A stretch of 64,000 nt of DNA from an uncultured Ruminococcus sp. (lineage in GTDB: Bacteria > Bacillota > Clostridia > Oscillospirales > Acutalibacteraceae). The position numbers were made by a program, and so were the translations under genes. Where the stretch lies: positions 15,892-79,891 of the forward strand of contig CACWKD010000005.1 of the NCBI GenBank assembly GCA_902761345.1, written 5' to 3'. This document shows positions 48,940-64,000 of this stretch, piece by piece (position 1 is the first letter of the stretch; every line of letters begins with the position of its first letter). The notes under the pieces are model-generated. The model was not told the origin of the DNA. It was given only the letters and a program-made list of their open reading frames with translations, and did no database searches.

Positions 48940-49005
48940 TTTTCACAAAATTGCAAGAGTAAGTTTAAAAAAACAGCACCGCCCATAAAAGCGATGCCGT
49001 TTGGT

Positions 49006-51117
49006 TTATTCAAGCTCAAAAGCTCCAGTGTACAATTGATAATACTTACCCTTCTGAGAAATCAGTTCCTCGTGACTTCCTCTCTCTATAATCCTGCCTG
49101 CTTCAAGTACCATTATAACATCTGAGTTCTTTACAGTTGACAGTCTGTGTGCAATTACAAATACCGTCCTGCCGTGCATAAGCGAATCCATACCCTTTGT
49201 TACAAGCATTTCGGTTCTTGTATCAATAGAAGATGTCGCCTCGTCCAGTATCATTACGGGCGGGTCTGCAACCGCTGCTCTTGCAATAGAAACAAGCTGC
49301 CTTTGACCTTGCGAAAGACTTCCGCCTGTTCCGTCTATCATAGTGTTGTAGCCGTCGGGCAGTCTTGTGATGAAGTCATCTGCATTGGCGAGCTTAGCGG
49401 CAGCTATACACTCCTCGTCTGTTGCGTCAAGCTTTCCGTAGCGAATATTATCCATTATACTGCCGGTAAACAGGTTTGTATCTTGAAGAACAACTCCAAG
49501 CGATTTTCTCAAATCTGCTTTCTTAATCTTATTGATGTTAATTCCGTCATAGCGGATTTTTCCGTCTGCTATATCGTAGAATCTGTTGATAAGGTTTGTT
49601 ATAGTTGTCTTTCCTGCTCCTGTCGCTCCGACAAAAGCTACCTTGTGACCCGGCTCTGCATAAATAGACACATTATGTAAAACTATCTTCTCGGGAACAT
49701 ATCCGAAATCCACATCAAACAGACGTACATCACCTTTAAGCTCCGTATAGGTTGTAGTACCGTCGCCGTGAGGGTGTTTCCACGCCCAGATACCTGTTCT
49801 CTCCTCACAGGGGACGATCTCTCCGTTCTCGTGCTTTGCATTGACCAGCGTTACATATCCGTCGTCACGTTCGCTCTCCTCGTCAAGCAGCGAGAATATT
49901 CTCTGAGCACCTGCAAGTGCCATTACTATTGAATTGAACTGCTGAGATACATTTCCGAGAGGGCCTGAGAAACTCTTTGAAAGCTGCAAGAATGATACAA
50001 TAGCACCTACCGTTAAAACTCCTCCGCCTGTAAGAGAAATCAATGCTCCGACTATCGCAAGCACCGCATACTGCAAGTTACCTATGTTCATCATAATCGG
50101 CATTAGCATATTTGCGTACTTGTTCGCGTTGTATGCAGAGTCGTAAAGCTCATCGTTGAGTTTATCGAAATCCTCTTTTGTTTTATCCTCGTGGCAGAAT
50201 ACCTTGATTACCTTTTGACCTGTTATCATTTCCTCGATATAGCCATTGACTTTGCCTAAAGACTGCTGCTGTGCTATAAAGTACTTTCCGCTGTTTCCGC
50301 CTACCTTCTTTACAACAAGAAACTGTATCACACAGAACAGCAAAACAACTCCCGTAAGATATGGACTTGTATATACCATTGCGCAGAAAACAGCAACTAT
50401 TGTTACAATTGAGTTGAACACCTGCGGAATACTCTGAGAGATCATCTGTCTTAAAGTATCTGTATCGTTTGTGTAGTAGCTCATAATATCGCCGTGAGTA
50501 TGGGTGTCGAAATACTTTATCGGCAAGGTTTGCATATGCTTGAACATATCGTCACGCACTCTTTTCAGCACACCCTGAGAAATTGTAATCATTATTCTGT
50601 TGTAGAGATACGAAGCACTCACACCTATAAAATACACAACTCCCATTACTATAAGTGCCCTTATAAGAGGTGCAAAGTCAGGGTGTACTTGTGTAAGCAT
50701 TGGGGTAATATAGCTGTCTATGAGCAGTTTAATAAACATAGAGCCTGCTACATTCACTACTGCACTAACAAGAATACATATAAGCACAAGGAAAAATCTT
50801 GCCTTATAGCGTGAGAAAACATAATTGAGCAGTCTTTTTACCGTACTTTTATCCACCTTCGGCATAGGCGGCTTTCCACCCTTCGGGGGCATTTTACCCA
50901 TTTTATCGGCGGCGTTACTCTTTTCTTTTGCTTTTTGCGTTTGAGCTTCAACCGTCTTTTTGCTCTTTTCGGGTTCAGTAACTTTCTCAGCCTTCTGCTC
51001 CTTCTGAGGTTGTGGCTTTACCGTTTGTTCTCCCTTATCGGGTGTTTGCACATTCTTCTTTTCCTGCGTCTTTTCAGCAGAGGGGTTTTGCTTTTTCTTG
51101 TTTTTCTTCTTACTCAT
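49006..51117 (-). CDS. ABC exporter, fused permease/ATPase half-transporter, with a Lys/Glu/Gln/Pro-rich N-terminal extension of about 90 aa
   Basis: Six-TM exporter domain; Walker A GATGAGKTT; signature LSQGQRQLVSIARA; Walker B ILDEATSSID. Its ATG overlaps the end of the upstream ABC gene. Confidence 0.9.
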   Translation of the reverse strand: MSKKKNKKKQNPSAEKTQEKKNVQTPDKGEQTVKPQPQKEQKAEKVTEPEKSKKTVEAQTQKAKEKSNAADKMGKMPPKGGKPPMPKVDKSTVKRLLNYVFSRYKARFFLVLICILVSAVVNVAGSMFIKLLIDSYITPMLTQVHPDFAPLIRALIVMGVVYFIGVSASYLYNRIMITISQGVLKRVRDDMFKHMQTLPIKYFDTHTHGDIMSYYTNDTDTLRQMISQSIPQVFNSIVTIVAVFCAMVYTSPYLTGVVLLFCVIQFLVVKKVGGNSGKYFIAQQQSLGKVNGYIEEMITGQKVIKVFCHEDKTKEDFDKLNDELYDSAYNANKYANMLMPIMMNIGNLQYAVLAIVGALISLTGGGVLTVGAIVSFLQLSKSFSGPLGNVSQQFNSIVMALAGAQRIFSLLDEESERDDGYVTLVNAKHENGEIVPCEERTGIWAWKHPHGDGTTTYTELKGDVRLFDVDFGYVPEKIVLHNVSIYAEPGHKVAFVGATGAGKTTITNLINRFYDIADGKIRYDGININKIKKADLRKSLGVVLQDTNLFTGSIMDNIRYGKLDATDEECIAAAKLANADDFITRLPDGYNTMIDGTGGSLSQGQRQLVSIARAAVADPPVMILDEATSSIDTRTEMLVTKGMDSLMHGRTVFVIAHRLSTVKNSDVIMVLEAGRIIERGSHEELISQKGKYYQLYTGAFELE

Positions 51118-52864
51118 CTTCGCCGCCCCCTTTCACCTGTGACTCATAAACCTCACGATAAATCGCATTATTTTTCAAGAGTTCCTCATGTGTTCCAAAT
51201 CCGTTAAGCTTACCGCCGTCAAGAACTATAATTCTGTCTGCGTCCTCAACCGAGGAAATTCTCTGTGCAATAATAAACTTTGTAGTATCGGGTATCTCCT
51301 CTGCAAAAGCCTTTCTGATAAGCGAATCCGTCTTAGTATCTACCGCACTCGTAGAGTCGTCAAGAATAAGTATCTTCGGCTTTTTGAGCAAGGCTCTTGC
51401 TATACACAAACGCTGTTTCTGTCCGCCCGATACGTTAGTACCGCCCTGTTCGATGTATGTATCGTATTTGTCGGGGAACTTCTCTATAAATTCGTCCGCA
51501 CACGCAAGCTTACAGACTCTTTTGATTTCCTCATCTGTTGCATCGGGATTACCCCAGCGGAGATTTTCTTTAATCGTACCCGAGAAAAGCACATTCTTCT
51601 GGAGAACCATAGCAACATTATTTCTGAGCGTTTCGAGGTCATAATTACGCACATCTACTCCGCCTACGATGACCTTACCCTTTGTAGCGTCATAAAGTCG
51701 TGGAATAAGCTGTACAAGGCTCGATTTTGAAGAACCCGTACCGCCGATTACGCCTATTACCTCACCCGACTTTATATCAAGGTCAATATCGCTCAAACAA
51801 TATCTGTCGGACGCATTATAGCTGAATGATACTCCCTCAAACTTTACAGAACCGTCCTTTACTTCCATTACAGGATCATCGCCGTTTGTAAGGTCGGATT
51901 TCTCGTCAAGCACCTCGCATATTCTCTCTGCCGATGCTTTTGAAATTACTATCATCATAAATATCATAGAAAGCATCACCAGACTGATAAGCATCTGCAT
52001 TAAATACGAATACAGACTTGTAAGCTGTCCCGTTGTAAGTCCTGCGTCGGGGTTATTTCCCGAGGCTACAATGAATTTTGCGGAAAGCCAAGACAGACAA
52101 ATCATACTTCCGTAGATGACAAGCTGCATAACAGGCATATTAAAGATAATAATTTTCTCTGCTTTTATAAACAAGTCGTATATCTTGCCTGATACGTCTT
52201 TAAACTTCTTATCCTCGTAATCCTCTCGTACGAATGTTTTAACAACTCTTATACCGTGAAGATTTTCCCCTACAATATTATTAAGCTTATCGTAAGTCTT
52301 AAACACCTTTTCAAAAATCGGGTGTGCGTTTGACATTATTATAAAAAATGCTACTGCAAGTATCGGTACTGCAAGCAGATACATCAGCGAGATAGTTTTG
52401 TTTATTCTGAACGCACTTATCATACAGAATATTATCATCGCAGGACTTCTGAAAGCTGTACGAACTATCATCATATAAGCGTTTTGTACGTTAGATACAT
52501 CGGTAGTAAGTCTTGTAACTAAACTTGAAGTCGAAAACTTATCTATATTTGAGAAAGAGAACCCCTGTACATTATAGAACATGTCTCTTCTCAGATTTTT
52601 TGCAAAGCCTGCCGCAGCTTTTGCCGCAAAAATTCCTGCCAACGCACCGCACAACAGCGATAAAAGACACGCTGTTACAAGCTTCGCACCCGTAAGCCAA
52701 ACATATGACATATCTCCCGGGTTTATTCCGAAGTCAATAAGCTCAGCCATTAGCCTCGGAATTATAACTTCAAGTATAACCTCACCGACAACTGTGATCG
52801 GTGCAAGTATTGAAAAAAGCCAATATTCCCTTACGCAGCCTGCAAGCTTTTTTATCATACACAT
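51110..52864 (-). CDS. ABC exporter, fused permease/ATPase half-transporter, partner of 49006..51117. The start is more likely MIKKLAG at 52858.
   Basis: Walker A GGTGSSKSS, signature VSGGQKQRLCIARA, Walker B ILDDSTSAVD. RBS AAAGGAGAG. Confidence 0.9.
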   Translation of the reverse strand: MCMIKKLAGCVREYWLFSILAPITVVGEVILEVIIPRLMAELIDFGINPGDMSYVWLTGAKLVTACLLSLLCGALAGIFAAKAAAGFAKNLRRDMFYNVQGFSFSNIDKFSTSSLVTRLTTDVSNVQNAYMMIVRTAFRSPAMIIFCMISAFRINKTISLMYLLAVPILAVAFFIIMSNAHPIFEKVFKTYDKLNNIVGENLHGIRVVKTFVREDYEDKKFKDVSGKIYDLFIKAEKIIIFNMPVMQLVIYGSMICLSWLSAKFIVASGNNPDAGLTTGQLTSLYSYLMQMLISLVMLSMIFMMIVISKASAERICEVLDEKSDLTNGDDPVMEVKDGSVKFEGVSFSYNASDRYCLSDIDLDIKSGEVIGVIGGTGSSKSSLVQLIPRLYDATKGKVIVGGVDVRNYDLETLRNNVAMVLQKNVLFSGTIKENLRWGNPDATDEEIKRVCKLACADEFIEKFPDKYDTYIEQGGTNVSGGQKQRLCIARALLKKPKILILDDSTSAVDTKTDSLIRKAFAEEIPDTTKFIIAQRISSVEDADRIIVLDGGKLNGFGTHEELLKNNAIYREVYESQVKGGGEDE

Positions 52865-52888
52865 CTCTCCTTTGAGTAATTTGCCGTG

Positions 52889-53329
52889 TCACTGACTTTC
52901 GGCATTTTTCTGTACTTTGGCGAGAACCTCATAGAATATGTCAAGCTTATCCTCGGGTATTCCCTTTGTCAAGCTATCCTCAAACTCTATCGTGCGTTTG
53001 TTGACTTCATCGCATATTTCAAGAGCCTTTTGAGTGAGTACAAGTTTTTTAAGTCTTGCGTCACGCTCAACAGAAACCCTCTCAATATAACCTTTTTTTT
53101 CAAGCAAAGATATTATACTTGATGAAGTTGAACGTCTGATGTAGAACTTTTCCTCTATGTCTTTTTGAAAAACGTCCTCGCCGTCATGGTCGAACAGATA
53201 CATCAGCAGCCAGCAGTTTGACGTTGTTATCTCGTCGCCGTACACGTCTTTACATCTGCCCGAAAATGCACGTCTTATGCAGTTTGAAACACGCTTCATA
53301 TCACGACCAACATATCTGTCACTATCCAC
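52889..53329 (-). CDS. MarR-family transcriptional regulator
   Basis: 146 aa with a winged-HTH region QKDIEEKFYIRRSTSSSIISLLEKKGYIERVSVERDARLKKLVLT. It sits first in the operon with the two ABC genes. RBS AGGAGG with a GTG start. Confidence 0.85.
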   Translation of the reverse strand: MDSDRYVGRDMKRVSNCIRRAFSGRCKDVYGDEITTSNCWLLMYLFDHDGEDVFQKDIEEKFYIRRSTSSSIISLLEKKGYIERVSVERDARLKKLVLTQKALEICDEVNKRTIEFEDSLTKGIPEDKLDIFYEVLAKVQKNAESQ

Positions 53330-53521
53330 AAAAACACCTCCTTTTTTCTTTTATAAAAAAATGTCAGTACACTAATAGTTCGTGTACTAACATTATAACT
53401 CTTTGATATAAAATATGTCAATTCATATGTAAAAAATGTACAATTTTCGTCAATATGCTGTAAAGTATTGATATTCAAGGGCATTTATTAGATCATCTCA
53501 CAAATACCCCTACCTACAATT

Positions 53522-53900
53522 TTATTTATCAATCTTCTCCAACAACTGCTCGATGACATCTGCACAATCATCGGGTCTTTGGGCAAAGATATAGTGATCT
53601 CCCCCCAAAAGCACCATCTCACAGTTACCCATTTTCTCTGTATAAGGCTTGATAACAGTATCTCTCATATTTTGCGACTGCTCAAGTGTTACAGAAATAA
53701 GCGACTTGTCAAAATTCACCGCCCGCTTCATTGAGCATATCAAACTCTTGTGCAAGCTTTATCTTGTTTACCGTAAAAACTACGGCTACAAACACAACAA
53801 ACACCATTAAAACTCCGAAGATTATTCTTTTAATGATTTTCCTTTTGTCAATTTCGTCTTGCTCATACCATTTTCCTCACTTTGTTTTACAATATACTGT
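53522..53900 (-). pseudogene. Remnant of a membrane-anchored alpha/beta-hydrolase. Only N-terminal anchor and C-terminal fragments survive, in different frames.
   Basis: One minus-strand frame gives ..YEQDEIDKRKIIKRIIFGVLMVFVVFVAVVFTVNKIKLAQEFDMLNEAGGEF*. A second frame (ORF 53522..53755) gives ..MVLLGGDHYIFAQRPDDCADVIEQLLEKIDK, a typical alpha/beta-hydrolase C-terminus. The catalytic core of about 200 aa is missing. Confidence 0.55.
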
Positions 53901-53923: not shown

Positions 53924-54580
53924 TCACACATTATCATCAGTATCGTTTTTTTCTGTATACCTTTTCAGTTTATTTGTTACACGTTCGAGCTGATCAACAT
54001 ACTCTTTTATTTTCGTTATTTCATTTTGACTGTACAGCCTTAGTCCCGAAACCAATACTGCAATAGATAGGAAAATCGCTCCGCATAATACACCTGCAAT
54101 AAAAGCAATAACTCCCTTAAAAACCGACTTTGACTCCTTTTGTTTATCAGATGATGTATTGCTTTCGTCCGCAGAACTTACTTCGGACGTACTATCCTCT
54201 GTTTTGCTTTCATCAGCGATACTGCTGTCTTCCGATTTACTGCTCACTTCAAAGATACCGCCCTCTTCTGTTGTAACGGTGCTTTCATCGCTGTCCGTGT
54301 TTTCTGTACTTTTTTCCTCACTCTTGTTGTTCTCTTCTCCAAAGATGTCGGAATTAGCGCCTTTTATAACATCAGGCTCACTTTGAACTTCTCCATCTTC
54401 ACCGTCTAATTCTTCATCATCGTACAAATAATCAGGCTCTTCTTCGTCTATGTAGTCATCATTGTAATCATCATACACATCGCCGTAATAGTAATCGTCT
54501 TCCGCACTTGCAGAAACACCGCCGAATATCAACAGCAGCGATACAGCAATACAATTAAGTATTAATAATAGTCTTCTCAT
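53924..54580 (-). CDS. Bitopic acidic protein. It has a signal peptide or TM, a Asp/Glu/Tyr-rich and Ser/Glu/Thr-rich ectodomain, a TM helix, and a short cytoplasmic coiled coil. It is the last gene of the candidate operon.
   Basis: MRRLLLILNCIAVSLLLIFGGVSASA, EDDYYYGDVYDDYNDDYIDEEEPDYLYDDEELDGEDGE, a second TM VIAFIAGVLCGAIFLSIAVLVSGL, and a tail NEITKIKEYVDQLERVTNKLKRY. RBS GGGGAG lies 27 nt after the upstream stop. Confidence 0.7.
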   Translation of the reverse strand: MRRLLLILNCIAVSLLLIFGGVSASAEDDYYYGDVYDDYNDDYIDEEEPDYLYDDEELDGEDGEVQSEPDVIKGANSDIFGEENNKSEEKSTENTDSDESTVTTEEGGIFEVSSKSEDSSIADESKTEDSTSEVSSADESNTSSDKQKESKSVFKGVIAFIAGVLCGAIFLSIAVLVSGLRLYSQNEITKIKEYVDQLERVTNKLKRYTEKNDTDDNV

Positions 54581-54607
54581 TGAAACTTCTCCCCAATATA
54601 GATTTTT

Positions 54608-57600
54608 TCAGAAACTTTCCGATATTATCCTGCCAACCTCAAAAAGATATACCGCATTGTGTATCATTTCAGGGTAAACATCGGCATTTGCAGCCCTCAT
54701 AAACGAGCTGTTCTTATCTTTAGAGATAATTCGTTTTGATATTTTCCTCTCATTCATCTTATCTACCAAAATATGCTCGTTTCCGTCGGGTATAAAGAAT
54801 TGTTCTATCTCCGAAACATACTCTTTTAGTTCTGCAAAAGGATTTTTAATAAAGTTTGCAGTTCTGTATCGCTGTTCTTTATTTTTATTGAGTTCATCTC
54901 CGCTCTTCAAAGGAGTAATATTATACTCTGCACACTTGTCACGTCTTAGCGGGTTTGTAATATAGTCCATATTTCGAGGGTCAATATATCTCCACTCTGT
55001 AACCGTTGTTTTGGTATCGTGCAAATGTACATTGTACAACTGAGAATTATCCGCACCACTGTTGTTAAAAGCGTCCGCATATACATCGAGTTTTTCAAGT
55101 CCTTTTAACAGCAGCTGTTTTGAATCGCCCTCAGGTACTTTAACGCTTACACTTATGTTGTATTTGCCGAAATACTTGTTTATCATCGAAATAAACTCGT
55201 TCGTAAACTTCTCAGCCAACAGCAGACCCTTTGAACCGCCGCCGTAGAAATTAAGGCTTACAGTAGCGTCTGTATGTTCGCAGGCATTCAGAGATGTTTG
55301 TGCAAAATCCTTTATAATAGGAATAAGTACGGCGTATCTGTAAAGGAGAGCCGATCTGATTTTAGGATCACACCCGTCAATGTTTATGTCGGCACATTCA
55401 AGTATCTCCATAAAAATATTCTCCCATGCAGCACTTTCAATATCTCCGCTGTCGTTTATATCACTGACAAATCTCTTTGCAAGCATACTTGCGTAATTTT
55501 GCAGAGGCTTTTTGTTTTCTTCCGACTTAGGCTCAAAGAAACCCGATACTCTTTCATTGCCGATCAAAAACTCTGTAATATTTCTCTCAAAGTCTTGCGG
55601 ATCACTCTTGCTGCCGCTATGTATCAGCATATCGAAAACCGCGCGTTTTAAAAGTTGCTTTCCCGCATACTCAATTGACGAATATCCGCAGAATGTTTTC
55701 GTATTGTTCACACAGTAAACTGCCGCCATATCCGTAGTCGAGTCGCCAATATCTATACCGATTATCAGATTGTTGTTTGCCATACTGCTGCCCGAAATAC
55801 CATTTGTAATAGCAAGACTTTCATACAGCAAATAATTATTTTTGCAGGTTATTACACTGTTTATCTGCAAATCATGAAAAACATTCGTTTTGAAATTATT
55901 ACTTAAATGGTAAGTAATAATATGATACAATTCCCTGTAATCTTCATTTGGAAACGACTGTATAAAAACAGCCTCCTCGCAGTTTGACGCTATCACATGA
56001 CACAACGCAGTATAAAACAGATTATAGATCATAGCTTGCAGAGTGTTATTAATAGTACCTGTTGAATTTGCAAGCAATGATTTATTTACGTCGCATATTT
56101 TCAAACCCTTTTCCTCAAATTTTGAGAAATGCCTATGGAAAGGCAGAAAAACATTGTCAAACGACACATCGCTAAACGGCTTGTCACAATACTCGATAAG
56201 AGCCGACGGAACAGAGCCGTTTTTCTCATACAGCGAGGGCATATTCAAAAAGTATGAATATCTCTCATTATCAAAGCTGCCGATAAGCTCACGGACAATA
56301 TTTGTTCCGCCCGTAATATCATCTAACAAACTTCCTCCGTTACCTATTTTATAGCCGACTGCACTTGAACTGCTGCCAAGATCCATATAAATATACATCG
56401 TGCTTTTCGGCTCGATTTTTACCGAATTAATATCAAACGATGTTATTTTATCTTCCTCAAGCAGAGGCGGCGTACACTCGTTACCCAATTTATGGATATT
56501 GATTATACAGCCTGCATAGCGATTTTCTCCCGAATATTTTGTTTTGCACAAGCTTACTTTAAATACATGTATCGGCTTATCGGAAGAATAAATATAAATC
56601 TTGTCACCGCTGTATGACTGTTTAAAATCCACTTCGCTGAGTTCAAGATTTTCTGCCGTACCGCCGTTTGATAAGCTTACGTTTAAATCGTAAAAATAAT
56701 TATACGATTTGCAGCGATATTCATATTCAATAGGTATGTCGGGATATGTACAAAATGTTCCTACACCGTCTGCACTCTTTATATTATCTCCGATATATTG
56801 TTTCTCATCTGTAAAATAATACGGTACTTTAAAGCTATCTGCATTCTCTTGACCAATATCTTTAAAAGATACTTTATAGCAAAATTTTCCACTTACAGTA
56901 TACTTTTCGGAAATTTCTTCATCATAGGTATGCTGCATAACTATGTTTTCTACCGATGTAATATTTCTTTCGATATCCTCTGCAAAATTCTTTTTCAACG
57001 GGTACAGAGCCACACACTTTCCGTTTACCTTTGATACATAAATATCATCGCAAAGAACATTATCCGACAAAACGGCATTTTCTATATCATAAAGCTTTAG
57101 AAAACCAACCGAACTATACGGTACATCTTCGCTGAAATTTATATCGCACTGTACAGCCGATAAAATAAACTCCCTTATCATCATAACGGGTAAATTCTCA
57201 GGGAGAGAATATGCCGAAAACTTTAGCTTTATTCGAAACGATACGGGTATCTGTGTGTTTATATACTTATCAAGGTTTTCTGTTTTTATAAGCTCCGAGA
57301 ACAGTTCCTCCCAGCCGTTGTCTTTACTCGCAATATGACGTGACGGGATTATGCAGTATCTGTTCGAGAAGCTGCCAATTGCAGTTCCTGTTTCATTTTT
57401 GACAAACTCATATACATAAAATTGATTTTTTGTATCTTCATCGGCAGAATTGCTTTGAGGGCAATTATCGTCCGTTTTGTCAAATAAAAACTTATTTTTC
57501 CAAACCCTCAAAAACGTATTATTCTCTATCGGATAACCGACTGTTTTAAGATGATAACCGTTATAAGAACCGTATATCATCATACATATTACAGCGGCAA

Positions 57601-57859
57601 CCCACCTTTTGAGTACGGGATTTCTGCCTAATTCACCTAAAACTTGTTTTTTATCTTGTGACCTTGAATACTTACCCCAAAGATTATCTATCGACCTCAT
57701 CGTATGGATAAAATGATCGTGTCCCTCAAAGCCTGTTCCTATCGAAAACTTGCGTTCGGCAAGCGCGGCATAATCCTTTACACTGCCCGATACTTTGTAA
57801 AATCTTGTGTCCCTGTAATCTGTACCGTCGTTGGTATCTCGTATGTTTGAAGTTACCAT
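54608..57859 (-). CDS. Giant (1083 aa) protein with a C-terminal actin/Hsp70-like (ASKHA) ATPase core; paralogue of 60549..64000
   Basis: The ordered motifs are IYMDLGSSSSAVGY (phosphate-1, about 56355-56390), LLYESLAI (EPxAA-like), IGIDIGDSTTDMAAV (phosphate-2, about 55717-55762) and NFYGGGSKGLLL (adenosine motif, about 55220-55250). Its start ATG overlaps the upstream stop (ATGGTAA). Confidence 0.75.
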   Translation of the reverse strand: MVTSNIRDTNDGTDYRDTRFYKVSGSVKDYAALAERKFSIGTGFEGHDHFIHTMRSIDNLWGKYSRSQDKKQVLGELGRNPVLKRWVAAVICMMIYGSYNGYHLKTVGYPIENNTFLRVWKNKFLFDKTDDNCPQSNSADEDTKNQFYVYEFVKNETGTAIGSFSNRYCIIPSRHIASKDNGWEELFSELIKTENLDKYINTQIPVSFRIKLKFSAYSLPENLPVMMIREFILSAVQCDINFSEDVPYSSVGFLKLYDIENAVLSDNVLCDDIYVSKVNGKCVALYPLKKNFAEDIERNITSVENIVMQHTYDEEISEKYTVSGKFCYKVSFKDIGQENADSFKVPYYFTDEKQYIGDNIKSADGVGTFCTYPDIPIEYEYRCKSYNYFYDLNVSLSNGGTAENLELSEVDFKQSYSGDKIYIYSSDKPIHVFKVSLCKTKYSGENRYAGCIINIHKLGNECTPPLLEEDKITSFDINSVKIEPKSTMYIYMDLGSSSSAVGYKIGNGGSLLDDITGGTNIVRELIGSFDNERYSYFLNMPSLYEKNGSVPSALIEYCDKPFSDVSFDNVFLPFHRHFSKFEEKGLKICDVNKSLLANSTGTINNTLQAMIYNLFYTALCHVIASNCEEAVFIQSFPNEDYRELYHIITYHLSNNFKTNVFHDLQINSVITCKNNYLLYESLAITNGISGSSMANNNLIIGIDIGDSTTDMAAVYCVNNTKTFCGYSSIEYAGKQLLKRAVFDMLIHSGSKSDPQDFERNITEFLIGNERVSGFFEPKSEENKKPLQNYASMLAKRFVSDINDSGDIESAAWENIFMEILECADINIDGCDPKIRSALLYRYAVLIPIIKDFAQTSLNACEHTDATVSLNFYGGGSKGLLLAEKFTNEFISMINKYFGKYNISVSVKVPEGDSKQLLLKGLEKLDVYADAFNNSGADNSQLYNVHLHDTKTTVTEWRYIDPRNMDYITNPLRRDKCAEYNITPLKSGDELNKNKEQRYRTANFIKNPFAELKEYVSEIEQFFIPDGNEHILVDKMNERKISKRIISKDKNSSFMRAANADVYPEMIHNAVYLFEVGRIISESF

Positions 57860-59373
57860 TTTGTCACCTCTTTTACAAATGCTTTAGAGGACGAAACTAC
57901 TGTTTTTATAATCGCAGCTATATCGCCCGAACTAACATTTATACTTCTGATAAGTTCATCTGTTAGGTTATTCAATCGTTCGTCTTTAATACTGCTGTTA
58001 AACGATCTTACAAATTTTACTATTTCATTTTGAACTGCATCAGGTGAACCATTATTTACAGCTTCAAGACAATTGTAATAAATTGGTGGAATTACAGCTG
58101 ATAACTGTGAGGAAGCGTCTATTTCTCTGAAAACTGCAATAATCGGTAAATAATTTTTCTCGAATATATTGTCAAATGTATTATTAAAACACCCTCTGAC
58201 TATCAGCGCCGAAATCAGAAAACCCAGGAATTTCTGCGTGTTCTTATCATCAAACAGATTGAAACTACTAAAGCTGTCGCCTTTGTCGCTGCCAAAGCCA
58301 TAAACTCCGCCGCCATTATAATTATCGTAGTGTTCAGCTATTTCTATCATTGAAACAGCACTCAATAAATTTACTATGTTTATTTTTGTACACTGACTGC
58401 CCGACAAAATCTTTGTTGAAGTTACATCGGGCGGTAAAAGTTTACTGCCGTTCGTTTTAAGATTAATAAAAGAAGCAGAAACAGTGCTATGCTCCGATTT
58501 TAAAGCCTCTATTAATTTTTCGGGATAGTCCTTTGGATTTAAGCCGCGATAATCATAATTTTCGGAAAACACTCTTGAATACTCTCTTTGGAGATTTACA
58601 ATATCTCCGTACATTCTGTTACGCTCCTCTAAAGAAGCATTACTGAATGCTTTTGCAATTTCGCTCGAATGTTCGGGAATATCAAAAATGTCGGTTTCTG
58701 CAAAGCCGATTGATCCAAAAGCGTCGGGATTATGAATAGGTATTTTCTCCGATTTTTTAGTTGAAGATGCGTTTAAAACATTGTACCTGAATATAACGCA
58801 ATCATGTTTGTTAGTAACTTTGGACACGGGAATTACATTTTCAAGCGGTATGAATGTAATCGCTGTACTATCAGAGCTGTAATCGCCTGTATTTATAATA
58901 ATTGTTTCTTTCTCAAAAGCGTTATTTGTTTCATTATCGGAATATAAAAGGTTCAATACATCTTTATCAGCGAAAAAGACCTCGCCCAATCTTGTGTTTC
59001 CGTGCATACCATAACGAATATTCTGTTTCATATCTATATCGGAACACCCAAGCGACAAAAGCTTTCTTTCTTTTTCGCTGTAAGTATCAGCAAGAGTTTT
59101 TTTAATATCGACCCTATTTGATACAATACCCGACAAGGTAACATTTTCGGGAAACACCATTTCGCTGTCCATAGGGTAATATTTTTTGTAATAATCGGAG
59201 TATACTTTTTTGAGTTCCGACAGTCTGCTGTTATCAGCCGTTTCGTTATTCAAACAAAGGGTTCTGACTATTATTTTATTGCAATTGCTTATCATACCCA
59301 TACAGGCAACCGAAATAAGTGCAGCGGCGTTTAATATTCCGCTTTCACCCCACGCATTTACTATAATATTCAT
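57853..59373 (-). CDS. Hypothetical 506-aa protein with no domain I can recognise; part of the candidate operon
   Basis: It has a long uninterrupted ORF with RBS AAGGAG 7 nt upstream and is translationally coupled to the downstream gene. There are no P-loop, TM or signal sequences. Confidence 0.6.
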   Translation of the reverse strand: MNIIVNAWGESGILNAAALISVACMGMISNCNKIIVRTLCLNNETADNSRLSELKKVYSDYYKKYYPMDSEMVFPENVTLSGIVSNRVDIKKTLADTYSEKERKLLSLGCSDIDMKQNIRYGMHGNTRLGEVFFADKDVLNLLYSDNETNNAFEKETIIINTGDYSSDSTAITFIPLENVIPVSKVTNKHDCVIFRYNVLNASSTKKSEKIPIHNPDAFGSIGFAETDIFDIPEHSSEIAKAFSNASLEERNRMYGDIVNLQREYSRVFSENYDYRGLNPKDYPEKLIEALKSEHSTVSASFINLKTNGSKLLPPDVTSTKILSGSQCTKINIVNLLSAVSMIEIAEHYDNYNGGGVYGFGSDKGDSFSSFNLFDDKNTQKFLGFLISALIVRGCFNNTFDNIFEKNYLPIIAVFREIDASSQLSAVIPPIYYNCLEAVNNGSPDAVQNEIVKFVRSFNSSIKDERLNNLTDELIRSINVSSGDIAAIIKTVVSSSKAFVKEVTKW

Positions 59374-59425
59374 TGAATTTCTCCTTGTACAAGATAAGAA
59401 GTATTACAAACATATACTTTTTGCT

Positions 59426-59478
59426 ATAAAAATCATACTCACCGCTGCAGTCTTATATCGTACAGCAACGATGAGTAT
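59426..59478 (-). terminator. Intra-operon hairpin with a U-tract (possible attenuator) between the 354-aa and 506-aa genes
   Basis: The minus-strand RNA reads AUACUCAUCGUUGCUG, loop, CUGCAGCGGUGAGUAU (16 positions: 13 Watson-Crick pairs, 2 G-U pairs, 1 mismatch), followed by GAUUUUUAU. Confidence 0.5.
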
Positions 59479-59487
59479 AGATTATTG

Positions 59488-60552
59488 TTATTGACTTATT
59501 TTTCCTTTTTGCAAGATTTTGTTATATTCATCTACTACACAAGGCTGTATCAACTTGTAGCTTTCATCAATGAAGTAGCTGTCACACTCATAAACAGAAT
59601 CATCGATCTCATTAATGTTGAATGCACTTGTTTTGTTCGGCAGGATTATGTATCCGTACTGTTCATCTTTGCATCTCACGTAAGGAGTGTCCGAATTTTC
59701 GCTGTACATAGTATGACTGAAGTTAGACATACCCGAATCCAGTTTCAGGAACGGAGTTGTAGGATCTTTTCGCAGTCTTCTGACTTGATTGAATACATCT
59801 TCCATAGTGCGGTACTTGGACATAGCTTCAGCTCTTGCCTGTTCCTCAGCAATGCGTTTATTCTCTTCCTCTTGTTTTCGTTTAGCTTCCAACTCAGCTT
59901 TCTTTCTATTTTCAGCTTCTAATTCCCTGTCTCTATGTAATTCCTTCTGTGCTATACGTTCGTTAACACGTTTCTCCAGATACTCTTCAAATGTTTCGCT
60001 TGGATTGGCGCTGTTTAAAAAGAGTATCGCACAACCGGTGCTGTCCGAGCTGATTACAGTCTGCGGCATCTCATACAACACATAAGGCGCTGAATTGCCG
60101 TCATTTACCCCTTTTGTGCCATTCGGTAAACGCAGCCATTTTTTAGAATTATCCATATCAACCAAAAAGCGTTCTCTGTTGTTGGGATCTCTATCTATAT
60201 GACCGTTTACACGAAAACAAATCGAAAGTGTACCATTCTGCTCTTGATGAGGAGGAGTGACTTTTGGAACATCTAAGTCGTATAAATCATTTTGCGAAGC
60301 TGCGTTCGGACGCAACATAAAACCGCTCATGTCTTGACCTTGACGTCCCGACTTCACAGGTGTGTTATCGGGAATTATTTGAGGATTTTGTTTGCTGTTA
60401 CCCGAACGATCATTGCGTTTGGGATTGTAAATCCCCGGTGAAGAAACATCGAGTACATCTTTTACCGCCTCAATTATGTTGATAGCATCTTGTAGTTTTC
60501 TCGACAATATCTGCATATCGGAATCATTTTTATGATTCACCATAATCATCAA
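59488..60552 (-). CDS. Hypothetical 354-aa protein with a central highly charged coiled coil or single alpha-helix; part of the candidate operon
   Basis: The ORF start overlaps the upstream stop (TGATGA context preceded by GGAGGT). The central segment is ELHRDRELEAENRKKAELEAKRKQEEENKRIAEEQARAEAM. There is a Gln/Asn/Pro-rich, low-complexity segment near the N-terminus. Confidence 0.6.
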   Translation of the reverse strand: MMIMVNHKNDSDMQILSRKLQDAINIIEAVKDVLDVSSPGIYNPKRNDRSGNSKQNPQIIPDNTPVKSGRQGQDMSGFMLRPNAASQNDLYDLDVPKVTPPHQEQNGTLSICFRVNGHIDRDPNNRERFLVDMDNSKKWLRLPNGTKGVNDGNSAPYVLYEMPQTVISSDSTGCAILFLNSANPSETFEEYLEKRVNERIAQKELHRDRELEAENRKKAELEAKRKQEEENKRIAEEQARAEAMSKYRTMEDVFNQVRRLRKDPTTPFLKLDSGMSNFSHTMYSENSDTPYVRCKDEQYGYIILPNKTSAFNINEIDDSVYECDSYFIDESYKLIQPCVVDEYNKILQKGKISQ

Positions 60553-63500
60553 CCTCCGAATTCATGGCCGTTAGCTGTACCGTTGTTTATAATTCTGCTG
60601 GTTGGGTTATAGCTGCCCTGATACTGCGAAAGCATCTTGCTTAGAGTAAACATAAATATAGCGCTCTGCATCATCTCGGGGTATATACAAGAGTTAGTAG
60701 CCTTTACAAAACTATTATTCGGGAAACCTAAGAGTTCTCTGTTAATAGCGTTCTGCATATTCTGTGATGCATTAGAAAGGAACGACTCGGTCAATACTTC
60801 GATCGGGTCTTGAACACCGTCATCATTGTTTATGAGCTGATCGTAGATCTCTTTCTTATAAAAAGCACTGATATCTTCAAACGGATTTCCTACATTATCA
60901 TAATACGACACAACATTATGAATGATCTGATCGTTAGCCTGCTTGTCGGCATTGCTGTTGCCTGTATAGACAAACGATTTGTTCCTCTGAAGAGCGTCTG
61001 TGTGAACGCTTGCAGTTGTTCCGAATGCTTCTGTATATTTCGGATTTACTTCATCGTCCCAATTTACCGGTGCTACCGTAACGCCATTAATGGAAAGCTC
61101 GAATACACCGTTATTCTGGTTCTTATCAATTCTTGCCAAACCGTCTATCAAAGTCTGCTTATCGTTATCTTGGGAAACACTAACGCTGACAGCGCCGGGA
61201 AACGCATTATTGAAATAACGATCAAGCAGTGTACGCACGTTAGTATTTCTCGAATCAAGATTGTTAAATAAATCTATACCCTTTGAAGCGCCGCCCTGGA
61301 ACTTAATATTAATACTTGCCCCCGGATTATATATTGATCCTGCAATTTTAATTGCTGTATTAATAAAGTCCTTAATAACAGGCATCATAAACATATATCT
61401 GAGGATAAAGTCAGCTGCGACTTTCTGATCCTTTACACCAACTCCTGCGCCAAAAGAAGCAACATCAAGAATATCCATAACTTTACTTTCAAAGTAATCG
61501 TTATCGTTTTGGTTCGCTTTGAGGTCGTTAATATATCCCTTGTATAAGGTCGTGTTATTACCTTTCGGTACAAATATAGGCTGACCGTAAGCGCATTGAG
61601 GATCAAGCGAACCGATAAGATGCTTATCAGCCATATCGCTTCCCTGAGCAAGAATATCTTTAACAACCGTCTTGATAAGATCCTTTCCTGCATACTCAAT
61701 GGAAGAGTATCCGCAGAAGTGTATCGTGCCGCCTGCGTCAACATATACAGCCGACATATCTGTTGTTCCGTCACCCATATCAATATTAATATTGAGTGCG
61801 TTTTGAGCAAGACCGTTAGTACCCAAAGTAACGCCGATACTCTCGTATAAGAAATGATTATTTCTATGATCAAGATAAAAATCATAAGTTAATCCGCTGA
61901 ACACCTGACTTACAGCATTCTTCGCTTGTGACCACGTTGTTTGTAGGTTCGGCTCATAATCCTTACTCGGCAGCGACGGTACGATCGTTACTTCACTGCA
62001 ATTGTTATCGATCGCATTGCAGGCAATTGTATAAAGCATATTGTGTATGACGATCTTCGGATGAACAAAAGCTCCTCCGCCTGTAACCAGTTCTGTCTTA
62101 TGGCTTGTAAAGGTATTGCCGATACCGCCGTAATTGGCATAGCTTTTTACAAAAGGCGTCCATGCGTCCTTATAAGGCATAGAATCAGCTACAGGAGCTT
62201 GCTTGTCATACAGAGAAGTTGTTGAAAGGAATTTATGATCTGTGTTTATTTCCGGATCATTGACAAGTATGCTGTACGCATTTTTAGCATAATCAACAAG
62301 ACATCTGCGTAATGTACACTTATTCTCTACCAAGCTTCCTCTATATCCGTTTCCTAAAGTAGTATCAACTTCATATCTTATATAAGAAGAACTGCTTCCG
62401 AAGTCAATATAAGCGCGAAGCTTGTGAGTTCCCGCAGGTCTGTCGTTATCGATACCAATGTCAACGCCCATTCCCTTATCAGCAAGCAGCGCAGGCAGAT
62501 CGCCCTTTCCTCTTGTTCTGAGGTTAAGAACATAACCGTAGGATCTTACTCCGTTTCTATCGGAGATCATTATAAAATGCTCGGGCAAGGTGGCTTCTGT
62601 TGATGAAATATCGATCTTATCATAAGCCTTTACATTCTTGTATGGCGCTAATGCACTCGGGGCAAAATCAATGAGCTTTTTAAGTGTTGTATCTCCGTTC
62701 AGCGAACCCATAAGCAGTCCGTCTTGAAGCACAACAGCTGTACCTAACCCCTTTACCTGATCCAACAGTATGTTAGTACCTTTTCTGCTGAAATATGTAA
62801 ACTTATTGCATCTGTGTTCCAAATCAGAGGTCAGATTAGGATACATACAAATAGTGGGGATCGCACGAATCCACTGGATCTCTCCCTTGTCGGCGCTGTA
62901 AGTCTTTGTTTTTGTATAATTTATTGTATGATCATACTTCGGAACACCTGCATTATTGATAAACTGCAGTGAGGTATTGACTGTGAAATCCAATTCCGCA
63001 GATGTAACCAAAGCAGTGTCAGCGAAGTCGGTTTTTACCTTTAGCTTAACATCATTGATCTTGCCGCCGTCCTTTACAAACTGTACGCCTATTGCGCTTA
63101 AAGGATAAGTAGAGTAGAACTTCTCATCATGACGTCCGAGATACAGCGTGTCATTTATCATTGCATCAAGATCTCTGTATCCGCTTATCTTGTAAAAACT
63201 AATGCCGTTGATAGTTTTCCAAGGTGTTACAGATCCGGCAGGAAGTACAACGCCGTTCGGCAGCTTAATAAGCTCCTTTATAAGAGCTGCTGCAAGCTGA
63301 AGAGGAGCAGGCTCTGTTGTAGATATGGAGTCGGCGCTCATGTGCAGGAATATCTTCTGCTTAACATTAAGCTCGTTCAATCTATCTGTGTACTTTTCCC
63401 AGACATCACTTAGCTTTATCTGTGTATTTGGATTATCTCTTCCCTCGCAAAGGTACAAATACTTCTTCTTCCACTCGGGAACTGCACCCGGAACACCGCT

Positions 63501-64000
63501 TAGCTTGTACTCTTTCATAGGTATAACAAACAACTGATCGTGGAATGTTCCGACATTGTTATGATAACCTAATTTCGGTAATGCAGGATTTGTAGGATCC
63601 ATTGTTATATAATTAAAAGAAGTTGAGCTTAATCCGGGAACAGGCAAACCTAATGCGTTAGCTCTTACTGTACCGTCATTATTATTACTGCCGCCGTTTC
63701 TTTCAAACTTTTTCTTCCATATTTCAAGAAAACGAGTACCCTGAATAGAATTACCCATTCCATCTTTAAACGGCTCGCCCTCTATGTGAACATCTGTCTG
63801 ATCATCGCAGCCGTACATTATACAGCATATCAAAGCAGATAACCATGATCGCAGATAGCCGCCCGATTTTTTCTTTAGCTCGGGAACGATAGTATTGTTT
63901 ATAGTTGCAGCCATTGGCGCGGCCTTATAAATACCTGCAATATGTGTTACCTTATTTTCCATAGTAATAAAGTGATCGCTGTCGCCGTCAACCTCCGCAA
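60549..64000 (-). CDS. Giant (more than 1137 aa) protein with an actin/Hsp70-like (ASKHA) ATPase core; paralogue of 54608..57859. The 5' end is probably outside the window.
   Basis: The ordered motifs are YIDFGSSSSYIRY (about 62373-62412), FLYESIGV, NIDMGDGTTDMSAVYV (about 61741-61790) and KFQGGASKGIDL (about 61273-61305). The frame stays open upstream of the first ATG (63962) to the window edge. There it reads ..GDSDHFITMENK.., which aligns with EGHDHFIHTMRS at residues 46-57 of the paralogue. Confidence 0.75.
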   Translation of the reverse strand, partial: AEVDGDSDHFITMENKVTHIAGIYKAAPMAATINNTIVPELKKKSGGYLRSWLSALICCIMYGCDDQTDVHIEGEPFKDGMGNSIQGTRFLEIWKKKFERNGGSNNNDGTVRANALGLPVPGLSSTSFNYITMDPTNPALPKLGYHNNVGTFHDQLFVIPMKEYKLSGVPGAVPEWKKKYLYLCEGRDNPNTQIKLSDVWEKYTDRLNELNVKQKIFLHMSADSISTTEPAPLQLAAALIKELIKLPNGVVLPAGSVTPWKTINGISFYKISGYRDLDAMINDTLYLGRHDEKFYSTYPLSAIGVQFVKDGGKINDVKLKVKTDFADTALVTSAELDFTVNTSLQFINNAGVPKYDHTINYTKTKTYSADKGEIQWIRAIPTICMYPNLTSDLEHRCNKFTYFSRKGTNILLDQVKGLGTAVVLQDGLLMGSLNGDTTLKKLIDFAPSALAPYKNVKAYDKIDISSTEATLPEHFIMISDRNGVRSYGYVLNLRTRGKGDLPALLADKGMGVDIGIDNDRPAGTHKLRAYIDFGSSSSYIRYEVDTTLGNGYRGSLVENKCTLRRCLVDYAKNAYSILVNDPEINTDHKFLSTTSLYDKQAPVADSMPYKDAWTPFVKSYANYGGIGNTFTSHKTELVTGGGAFVHPKIVIHNMLYTIACNAIDNNCSEVTIVPSLPSKDYEPNLQTTWSQAKNAVSQVFSGLTYDFYLDHRNNHFLYESIGVTLGTNGLAQNALNINIDMGDGTTDMSAVYVDAGGTIHFCGYSSIEYAGKDLIKTVVKDILAQGSDMADKHLIGSLDPQCAYGQPIFVPKGNNTTLYKGYINDLKANQNDNDYFESKVMDILDVASFGAGVGVKDQKVAADFILRYMFMMPVIKDFINTAIKIAGSIYNPGASINIKFQGGASKGIDLFNNLDSRNTNVRTLLDRYFNNAFPGAVSVSVSQDNDKQTLIDGLARIDKNQNNGVFELSINGVTVAPVNWDDEVNPKYTEAFGTTASVHTDALQRNKSFVYTGNSNADKQANDQIIHNVVSYYDNVGNPFEDISAFYKKEIYDQLINNDDGVQDPIEVLTESFLSNASQNMQNAINRELLGFPNNSFVKATNSCIYPEMMQSAIFMFTLSKMLSQYQGSYNPTSRIINNGTANGHEFGG

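Follow-up and report, generated by a model that had tools for sequence, protein, structure and literature searches.

A conserved rumen Ruminococcus operon that pairs two giant actin/Hsp70-fold ATPases with two putative tubulin-like proteins and a set of membrane partners

Introduction

Bacterial tubulin- and actin-like nucleoside triphosphatase (NTPase) systems drive division, cell shape, DNA segregation and organelle positioning, and newly found cytoskeletal families (TubZ, PhuZ, MamK, Alps and FtsZl1) have each opened new cell biology. The DNA analyzed here is a stretch of 64,000 nucleotides (nt) from an uncultured Ruminococcus sp., hereafter called the window. It ends in an operon of closely packed minus-strand genes, two of which encode very large proteins with an actin/Hsp70-type (ASKHA) core. 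This locus raises the question of whether the genes form a conserved unit or a chance juxtaposition, to which known proteins their products are related, and what kind of machine they might build. In the following sections, coordinates are window positions unless they are prefixed by a locus label (L0xx).

The window holds part of a conserved eight-gene operon

A sequence-only reading of the window had singled out five co-directional open reading frames (ORFs) on the minus strand, and all five were recovered where it had placed them (lengths in amino acids, aa):

60549-63962 (called ORF, open to 64000), minus strand: giant A, an actin/Hsp70-fold (ASKHA) ATPase with a full protein length of 1189 aa
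59488-60552, minus strand: the tether (or "cc" protein), 351-354 aa, with a likely start at the ATG at 60549 or 60543
57853-59373, minus strand: X2, 506 aa, a paralogue of X1 and a putative, divergent FtsZ/tubulin-like protein
54608-57859, minus strand: giant B, an actin/Hsp70-fold (ASKHA) ATPase of 1083 aa
53924-54580, minus strand: a bitopic acidic membrane protein of 218 aa

The junctions between these genes are as tight as had been described. The TGA stop codon of giant A (60551-60549) shares its last base with the ATG at 60549, immediately upstream of which lies a GGAGG; the stop codon of X2 and the start codon of giant B overlap in ATGGTAA (57853-57859); and the 27-nt spacer before the last gene contains a GGGGAG ribosome-binding site. 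No upstream in-frame stop codon precedes giant A before the window end (ORF scan). Its true length of 1189 aa was taken from a 100%-identical database protein (P0005) and from L004, a contig that is identical to the window and reaches further upstream, which shows that 52 N-terminal residues fall outside the window.

Upstream of giant A, L004 begins with three genes of poor conservation; then come a transglutaminase-like lipoprotein, a second lipoprotein (635 aa), a protein of 167 aa with four transmembrane helices (the 4-TM protein; TM, transmembrane) and the 620-aa protein X1. The coupling proposed in the sequence-only reading therefore stands, but the boundary it implied does not: the unit reaches past 64000, with the lipoprotein, 4-TM and X1 genes lying upstream and outside the window, as seen in L004. 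The window holds the downstream two-thirds of the conserved operon.

A scan of one genome per GTDB species recovered 12 loci, all of them in metagenome-assembled genomes (MAGs) of rumen Ruminococcus, Oscillospiraceae or Clostridiales. Eight genes stay together as a unit in about ten MAGs of rumen Ruminococcus/Oscillospiraceae; they are syntenic in L001, L005, L010, L012, L013, L015 and L017 (L001 and L005 are metagenome contigs). This double-module order runs lipoprotein, 4-TM protein, X1, giant A, tether, X2, giant B and bitopic protein. Protein identity to the window and L004 across the syntenic loci is 25-57%, and the order holds down to 25-35% (ORF clustering). Furthermore, comparison of giant B with a 98%-identical copy in a rumen MAG gave a ratio of non-synonymous to synonymous substitution rates (dN/dS) of 0.19. 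Because of this low ratio and of the synteny kept in other genomes, the five genes are functional coding genes under purifying selection and not chance ORFs.

Two duplications underlie the operon. The giants are full-length paralogues, as had been suggested (23% identity over approximately 1120 aligned columns, E 5e-64). X2, which had been regarded as an orphan, is a paralogue of X1 (26% identity over 434 aa, E 2e-37), which is encoded just upstream of giant A. Since X1 and X2 are paralogous and the giants are paralogous as well, the core of the operon is a duplicated module of X plus giant.

The three poorly conserved genes at the upstream end of L004 (L004:35-4426) are co-directional and encode proteins of at least 145 aa, 347 aa and 432 aa, the last with a highly charged E/K/R tail. 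They are followed by the lipoprotein with a transglutaminase core (PF01841, E 4e-9). Among these extra upstream genes, only the transglutaminase-like one recurs near the cassette elsewhere (L005 and L013).

Giants A and B are ASKHA proteins with intact nucleotide-binding motifs

Both giants carry the three nucleotide-binding motifs of the ASKHA superfamily:

giant A, minus strand: P1 DFGSSSS, 62385-62405; P2 DMGDGTTD, 61758-61781; adenosine motif GGASKG, 61278-61295
giant B, minus strand: P1 DLGSSSS, 56363-56383; P2 DIGDSTTD, 55730-55753; adenosine motif GGGSKG, 55226-55243

The consensus strings DxGSSSS (P1), DxGDxTTD (P2) and GGxSKG (adenosine) are invariant in a nine-sequence alignment (A1) that covers both paralogue clades, and the motifs are also present, in ASKHA order, in the distant giants described below. 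The AlphaFold model of giant B has a mean predicted local distance difference test score (pLDDT) of 57.6, with 10-residue block means mostly of 60-89 over residues 600-930. Foldseek comparison of this model returned 228 PDB matches at E ≤ 1e-3, which identifies a duplicated RNase-H-like fold; the top matches are the nucleotide-binding domains of DnaK/Hsc70 and MreB (E 1.5e-7 to 4e-6, probability 1.0). Motifs and structural matches thus agree on the actin/Hsp70 fold that had been read from the sequence, and giants A and B are ASKHA-superfamily proteins with intact nucleotide-binding motifs. The ATPase core spans approximately residues 485-930 of giant B; about 480 N-terminal and about 150 C-terminal residues, the latter helical in the model, lie outside it (about 630 aa of extensions in total).

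The spacing of the P1, P2 and adenosine motifs, read from their positions, is 210 and 170 residues. Given the numbering of DnaK and MreB, this would resemble Hsp70 more than MreB. By sequence, DxGDxTTD (P2) is presumably closest to MreB/FtsA (compare DIGGGTTD). Weak Pfam matches to MreB, FtsA and SrfB occur in distant relatives of the giants. For the giants themselves, no Pfam or NCBIfam match was found at E ≤ 1, the Pfam HSP70 model included, and no Hsp70 substrate-binding domain was detected.

These features bear on one alternative explanation of the operon, namely that the giants form an Hsp70-like chaperone or translocation motor. They would use ATP to fold, pull or assemble extracytoplasmic clients via the 4-TM protein, with X as a co-factor, and candidate clients would be the acidic bitopic protein, the lipoprotein, the transglutaminase-like lipoprotein or cellulosome-related surface proteins. 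Such a motor would fit the structural matches of giant B, the best of which are Hsp70 nucleotide-binding domains, and the motif spacing; several operon partners are secreted or membrane proteins, and the hosts produce cellulosomes, with dockerin enzymes encoded beside L010. However, neither a J-domain nor a GrpE-like partner was detected, just as the substrate-binding domain and a match to the HSP70 model are missing, the P2 motif points toward MreB/FtsA, and a recognizable translocon or secretion ATPase is absent. In addition, an Hsp70 co-chaperone like the paired and probably tubulin-like X would be without precedent. We therefore consider a chaperone or translocation motor quite unlikely.

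Paired ASKHA enzymes of the hydantoinase/oxoprolinase type were also considered as relatives and rejected, with no Pfam match and no such protein among the top 50 Foldseek matches of giant B. As a separate observation, one MAG locus (L016:2270-5886) has giant A in two pieces, overlapping ORFs of 442 and 795 aa, which reflect either a frameshift or pseudogene or an assembly error.

The X proteins are likely to contain a divergent tubulin-type domain

The sequence-only reading had treated the ASKHA core as the only biochemical handle on the operon. This is no longer the case, since the second duplicated family, X, is probably FtsZ/tubulin-like. The relevant loops of the two proteins are:

X2, minus strand: T1-like WGESG, 59338-59352; T3-like GMHGNTRLGE, 58981-59010; degenerate T4-like NTGDYSSDSTAITFIPLEN, 58837-58893
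X1, loops at the tubulin/FtsZ positions: T1 NLWGGEG (glycine-rich, after strand 1); T3 GIYGKPWVGE; T4 GGYKGGGTAATFIP (after strand 4)

The AlphaFold model of X2 (pLDDT 80; predicted template modeling score 0.83) consists of an alpha/beta domain at the N-terminus and a C-terminal half made of helices, and the order of its secondary-structure elements fits tubulin/FtsZ. Judged by the motifs of X1 and the secondary structure of X2, the T1, T3 and T4 loops have the order and spacing of the tubulin superfamily. The T4 loop of X2 in the window is degenerate (GDYSSDSTA). The glycine-rich form of this loop has been lost from X2 in the window genome, L001, L007, L008 and L010, and is retained in L013 and L015.

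Sequence comparisons point in the same direction. The Ruminococcus X family is homologous to the X-like proteins of the distant cassettes (hhalign, 96.5% probability, E 7.4e-10, 427 columns), which carry GGTG[ST] and GG[TA]G loops. One of these, from Prevotella, approaches the Pfam models Tubulin_2 (E 7.8e-5; 22.5 bits, cut-off 27) and Tubulin (E 6.6e-4; 20.4 bits, cut-off 33). All 38 of its 38 PDB matches are FtsZ (best E 0.0025), with the NTD.QAL, T3 and T4 motifs in register. A 13-sequence profile of the X family, mostly of Ruminococcus proteins, matched RepX or FtsZ in six of seven PDB matches, in the same T3-T4 register; the top match is RepX (4ei7) at E 0.037, with FtsZ at E 0.5-1.5. An hhalign run of the Ruminococcus X profile against Escherichia coli FtsZ chose the T3-T4 register with a P of only 0.22. 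Among the weak Foldseek matches of the X2 model, FtsZ and tubulin recur (E 0.1-0.3, probability up to 0.89).

Several results pull the other way, both for this assignment and for the machine proposed below. Every single link between X and tubulin/FtsZ lies below curated or conventional thresholds. Against a seven-sequence FtsZ profile, hhalign of X profiles gave a P of only 0.007-0.1, and one of these runs (P 0.1) was topped by an irrelevant region; the hhalign runs against FtsZ otherwise choose the same T3-T4 register as the PDB matches. Foldseek of the X2 model against the PDB returned nothing at E ≤ 1e-3, its best matches (E 0.019-0.03) being generic Rossmann-like enzymes. The C-terminal half of X is all-helical, unlike the C-domain of FtsZ/tubulin, so that filament formation cannot be assumed. 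Further searches were negative: Foldseek of the model against viral structures gave nothing significant, X1 and X2 of the window operon have no Pfam match, Pfam searches with the individual sequences of the X alignment converged on no family, and phmmer of the L032 X-like protein against the PDB returned no FtsZ. Because this chain of mostly sub-threshold links agrees on one T3-T4 register, we nevertheless consider it likely that X contains a highly divergent tubulin/FtsZ-type nucleotide-binding domain.

The same matches bear on a second alternative, a metabolic or cell-wall enzyme pair, in which the giant would be an ASKHA kinase or transferase and X a Rossmann enzyme (such as a glycosyltransferase-like or nucleoside-hydrolase-like one) that alters an envelope polymer. 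Kinases are common among ASKHA proteins, and the top Foldseek matches of X2 are Rossmann-like enzymes and glycosyltransferases, at non-significant E values of 0.02-0.2. Set against this pairing, giant B matches the Hsp70/actin branch, with neither sugar kinases nor hydantoinases among its top 50 matches, no Pfam enzyme family is matched, and, at the sequence level, the X family matches FtsZ, RepX and Tubulin rather than enzymes. Moreover, X2 has been kept despite the loss of its glycine-rich loop in several lineages, which is typical of structural paralogues. An enzyme pair is, in our judgment, highly improbable.

Membrane and surface partners

The protein between giant A and X2 had been described as a 354-aa coiled-coil protein. 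It does contain a charged coiled coil, but this description misses that the protein is an N-terminally membrane-anchored tether in most homologues. In a ten-sequence alignment (A6), most members have an N-terminal TM helix, basic residues, a P/Q/A-rich or coiled-coil linker and a C-terminal domain. The window protein consists of an N-terminal helix, a low-complexity linker, the charged coiled coil and a conserved C-terminal domain of approximately 100 aa with an invariant LPN..F..Y..G.I; the TM helix is missing from the tether in the window, L001 and L005. The tether sits between giant A and X2 in all double-module loci. Its likeness to ZipA is architectural only: comparison with PDB chains, ZipA included, gave no sequence match, and there was no Pfam match. 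Two tandem tether paralogues follow giant A at L005:9043-10729.

The last gene encodes an acidic bitopic membrane protein, in line with the sequence-only reading. It has a signal peptide, 25% Asp plus Glu and one TM helix. In the predicted layout, an ectodomain rich in Asp, Glu, Ser and Thr precedes the TM helix (residues 157-175), and approximately 43 aa form a coiled-coil tail in the cytoplasm. This architecture is kept, with diverged sequence, after giant B in L001, L008, L009, L010, L011 and L017. At L007:390-6286, giant B is followed not by a bitopic protein but by an X1-type gene (54% identical to X1), which suggests a permuted order or a second cassette.

The cassette lipoproteins (L030:3303-4802 and L004:4486-6393) contain strings resembling a metal ion-dependent adhesion site (MIDAS), VNFYLERSGSM in Prevotella and VNVYYDNSQGC in Ruminococcus, and a later [ST]D[LM] strand. 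Assignment of the lipoprotein as a vWA domain was rejected: the resemblance consists of short motifs only (ERSGSM in Prevotella, DNSxG in Ruminococcus), and Pfam and a PDB profile search were unsupportive.

Rarity and distant single-module cassettes

None of the five window proteins could be assigned to a named family, as had been stated: Pfam, NCBIfam, PADLOC and PHROGs gave nothing above curated cut-offs, and no strong full-length match of the five to a characterized system was found. For the upstream L004 genes, Pfam and PADLOC yielded nothing above cut-offs except Transglut_core in one lipoprotein. PDB sequence and profile searches with the giants, the window and Ruminococcus X proteins, the tether and the lipoprotein returned nothing significant, and domain searches detected no nuclease, helicase or other effector domain in any cassette. 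Literature searches found no description of a cassette of X and giant.

The giant family is extremely rare. A word-indexed search of 5.8 billion proteins returned four to five relatives per giant. When 1.84 billion cluster representatives were searched exhaustively with a profile, no more than 73 proteins scored at E ≤ 1e-3. The exhaustive search also gave proteins of 1000-1200 aa that match only the C-terminal half of the ATPase. As hhalign showed, these distant giants share homology with those of Ruminococcus over 616 columns (99.9% probability, E 2.4e-31). In three distant lineages, they belong to a single-module cassette of lipoprotein, 4-TM protein, X-like protein and giant:

L025, ENA metagenome contig: lipoprotein 578 aa; 4-TM proteins 158 and 164 aa; X-like protein 588 aa; giant 1203 aa; a TM protein after the giant
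L030, Prevotella sp. oral taxon 299 F0039 (cultured): lipoprotein 513 aa; 4-TM protein 147 aa; X-like protein 515 aa; giant 1158 aa; a coiled-coil protein after the giant
L032, JGI metagenome contig: lipoprotein 530 aa; 4-TM protein 152 aa; X-like protein 499 aa; giant 1033 aa; the contig ends after the giant

The L032 and L025 lipoproteins are probably homologous to the Ruminococcus lipoprotein, as suggested by hhalign probabilities of 91% and 52%, respectively; the comparison with the Prevotella lipoprotein gave no clear answer. The L030 core is preceded by a 212-aa ORF whose N-terminus is hydrophobic. In L025, the genes directly upstream of the cassette (L025:1158-3364) encode a tyrosine integrase (Phage_integrase) and a surface protein rich in Thr, whose terminal PPDTG, hydrophobic helix and basic tail make it look like a sortase substrate. 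The L032 cassette is directly preceded, on the same strand (L032:724-4805), by genes for a split P-type cation ATPase and two TerD-domain proteins.

The integrase and the TerD genes would also suit an accessory or stress role, and thus count against the envelope machine proposed below. A third alternative is an accessory conflict or stress system built as a membrane-anchored NTPase sensor or effector, in which the variable surface protein would sense phage or another insult and the Hsp70-like giants and X would respond. Rarity and patchiness of the giants would fit such a system, as would the fast divergence of the bitopic ectodomain under a constant architecture and the varying neighbors of the cassette; Hsp70-like domains are known in defense systems, for example in CoCoNuTs. 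However, PADLOC-DB v2 gave no match to any of 12 proteins (g1-g7 and giant A of L004; cc, X2, giant B and g12 of the window), with a threshold of E ≤ 1 for the window's five products and of E ≤ 0.1 for the eight from L004 (seven upstream products and full-length giant A). Nuclease, protease-effector, TIR, Sir2 and pore-forming toxin domains were not detected. Furthermore, tblastn of giant B and the distant giant P0055 against 50,697 phage and 72,556 plasmid records found no relatives except on one Prevotella secondary replicon, and the Ruminococcus flanks are housekeeping or cellulosomal rather than defense islands. The Hsp70-like proteins of CoCoNuTs, which are tied to McrBC, were rejected as relatives, McrBC being absent here. 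On balance, we regard a conflict or stress system as unlikely; if it were the true reading, it would represent a new architecture without a recognizable effector.

A proposed membrane-tethered machine

As our preferred reading, we tentatively propose that the operon encodes a membrane-tethered tubulin-like/actin-like NTPase machine, analogous to FtsZ-FtsA-ZipA and acting on the cell envelope. It would comprise two paralogous modules, each pairing an FtsZ/tubulin-superfamily protein (approximately 500-620 aa) with an actin/Hsp70-fold ATPase (approximately 1100-1200 aa), plus four partners in the membrane or at the surface, namely the extracytoplasmic lipoprotein, the small 4-TM protein, the tether with its ZipA architecture and the bitopic surface protein, whose coiled-coil tail is cytoplasmic. 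The X proteins would assemble in a nucleotide-dependent manner, and the giants would bind and hydrolyze ATP. Giants, tether and bitopic tail would hold the assembly at the cytoplasmic face of the membrane, while the 4-TM protein and the lipoprotein would couple it to the cell surface. Its output would be the organization or remodeling of the envelope or surface, not DNA or RNA targeting. Because X2 in this genome is without the glycine-rich T4 loop, module B probably joins module A in a hetero-complex and has a structural or regulatory role there.

The proposal builds on what the sequences show, namely a conserved set of genes, a duplication of both X and giant, an ASKHA fold with intact motifs, and predicted membrane topologies. 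Mechanism and function, by comparison, are inferred by analogy with FtsZ-FtsA-ZipA, and this weighs against the proposal, as do two further points. The N-terminal 480 residues of the giants are poorly modeled and uninterpreted. In addition, hhalign detected no homology between the tether family and the post-giant proteins of L025, L031 and L030, or between the 4-TM family and its positional counterparts in the distant cassettes; the 4-TM and post-giant (tether-position) proteins of these cassettes are positional or architectural analogues only. The sequence-only reading had offered three possibilities for the operon. A cytomotive or filament-forming machine has gained most support, a surface-assembly system is still compatible with the data, and a defense module has gained little.

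In a bolder version, which we find rather doubtful, the cassette would be a previously unknown dual-cytoskeleton machine, with a tubulin-superfamily GTPase and a giant actin-superfamily ATPase as obligate partners that co-assemble on the membrane. The A/B duplication in rumen ruminococci, with one GTP loop inactivated, would then be somewhat like that of alpha/beta-tubulin, and the machine would have arisen independently of FtsZ-FtsA and serve a non-division role in the envelope. The cassette and both of its protein families are undescribed; their building blocks come from known superfamilies and are not categorically new. What the locus contributes are two families, remote members of the actin and, putatively, the tubulin superfamily, that are genetically locked together with tethers of their own, in a cassette found in Bacillota and Bacteroidota. 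The cultured strain Prevotella sp. oral taxon 299 F0039 carries the single-module version, which makes the system tractable. There, the cassette falls within about NC_022111.1:620,780-630,204, with the giant at about 625,284-628,760. Furthermore, the hosts of the double-module form are cellulosome-producing rumen cocci, and a role in surface organization could bear on fiber degradation.

Genomic flanks and composition

The operon had been suspected of horizontal acquisition, as it looked AT-rich. Its guanine plus cytosine (GC) content of 38.7%, compared with 41.2% in the rest of the window, lies within the 38.0-43.9% range of the window's own 10-kb windows, and horizontal transfer was rejected as a conclusion from composition, the GC content not being distinctive against the same sequence. 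A 1766-aa ORF elsewhere in the window (35068-40368, minus strand, 38.9% GC) lies partly in the window's lowest-GC 2-kb segment (38-40 kb, 34.6% GC).

The region 53522-53900, on the minus strand between the cassette and the MarR promoter, looks like a decayed gene, as had been supposed: inspection of reading frames revealed three short broken frames, the last of which ends in ...GGDHYIFAQRPDDCADVIEQLLEKIDK. Directly downstream follows a separate minus-strand operon (46912-53421), with a 12/12 match to the sigma-70 consensus at 53392-53421:

52889-53329, minus strand: MarR-family regulator
51110-52864 and 49006-51117, minus strand: two fused ABC exporter genes
46912-48939, minus strand: SulP/STAS permease

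As this MarR/ABC-exporter/SulP block has a sigma-70-like promoter of its own, the cassette ends at approximately 53924.

The flanks of the Ruminococcus loci are housekeeping or cellulosomal genes that vary by genome. At L010:14404-21600, genes for a dockerin-bearing pectate lyase/CBM77 protein and a GH11 xylanase/CBM/esterase flank the cassette; these dockerin enzymes identify the host as a cellulosome-producing Ruminococcus. Downstream of the cassette in L013 (L013:13379-19835) are genes for a 766-aa surface protein (signal peptide, mid-protein TM helix), an 837-aa protein with a C-type lectin domain (PF00059, E 3.6e-7) and another transglutaminase-like protein.

Comparison with known systems

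The giants share with Hsp70/DnaK and MreB the same three nucleotide-binding motifs in the same order, and these proteins are the best structural matches of giant B. They differ from both in having no match to Pfam HSP70 or MreB_Mbl, no substrate-binding domain and approximately 630 aa of extensions. SrfB (PF07520) is similar in that it has approximately 1000 aa, an actin-like ATPase as its only recognizable core and a small operon that it shares with functionally uncharacterized partners. A kinship with such SrfB-type proteins, entertained in the sequence-only reading, found no support: neither the window giants nor the nine A1 members match SrfB, and SrfA and SrfC homologues are absent. Only one of 14 distant relatives, P0054, reached 16.3 bits (E 0.0025; cut-off 27.1 bits), over the P2 region. 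The hosts are also Gram-positive rumen anaerobes, unlike the Proteobacteria that carry SrfB. To our knowledge, no ASKHA protein of approximately 1,100 aa has a known mechanism, and the cassette offers a role for such proteins.

TubZ/RepX resemble X as very divergent tubulin-superfamily proteins (putative in the case of X) of accessory operons, and RepX is the top PDB match of the X family, at an E value (0.037) that is non-significant alone. In contrast to type III partition systems, the cassette has no TubR-like protein and no centromere, and it is chromosomal with membrane partners. An architectural analogy can be drawn to PilM-PilN-PilO-PilP of type IV pili and GspL-GspM of type II secretion, in which a cytoplasmic actin-fold protein works with bitopic membrane proteins and a lipoprotein. 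The cassette differs from these systems in the absence of a pilin, secretin, PilB/PilT ATPase and platform protein and of any sequence similarity, and its giants, three times larger than PilM, have a putative tubulin-like partner.

The nearest functional analogue, by architecture, would be FtsZ-FtsA-ZipA. In both cases, a tubulin-superfamily protein (putative here) is encoded beside an actin-superfamily ATPase, and the tether resembles ZipA in its N-terminal TM helix, flexible linker and globular C-domain. The Pfam FtsA, FtsZ and ZipA models do not match the window proteins. Moreover, the gene order is reversed, with X upstream of the giant; the giants are about three times larger than FtsA and have an N-terminal extension of approximately 480 aa that is unexplained; and X lacks the FtsZ C-terminal domain. 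Finally, the module is duplicated, it comes with lipoprotein, 4-TM and acidic surface partners, and it is accessory and rare rather than universal.

The nearest described computational entity is the operon of FtsZl1 (Pfam Tubulin_2) and vWA proteins, predicted to be a membrane-remodeling system (Makarova and Koonin, 2010; PMC2875224). FtsZl1 has a divergent N-terminal FtsZ-like domain and a mostly helical C-region, with reliable similarity ending at about H5, and its operons encode many functionally uncharacterized secreted and membrane proteins (PMC2875224). In Magnetospirillum magneticum, a 1626-aa DnaK-like (COG0443) protein is encoded beside FtsZl1/vWA genes (PMC2875224, supplementary file 5). 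X probably shares the layout of an FtsZ-like N-domain followed by a helical C-region, and the best Pfam match of its Prevotella homologue is Tubulin_2. This score is below the cut-off and comes from the Prevotella homologue only, window X2 and X1 having no match. X is also shorter (500-620 aa, compared with approximately 850-1190 aa) and lacks the extended coiled coil of FtsZl1; the P-loop GTPase and OmpA partners are absent from the cassette, and vWA is seen only as MIDAS-like strings. As described, the FtsZl1 system includes neither a regular giant ASKHA partner nor a duplication. The cassette gives a concrete gene neighborhood for the poorly understood FtsZl1-like branch of tubulins.

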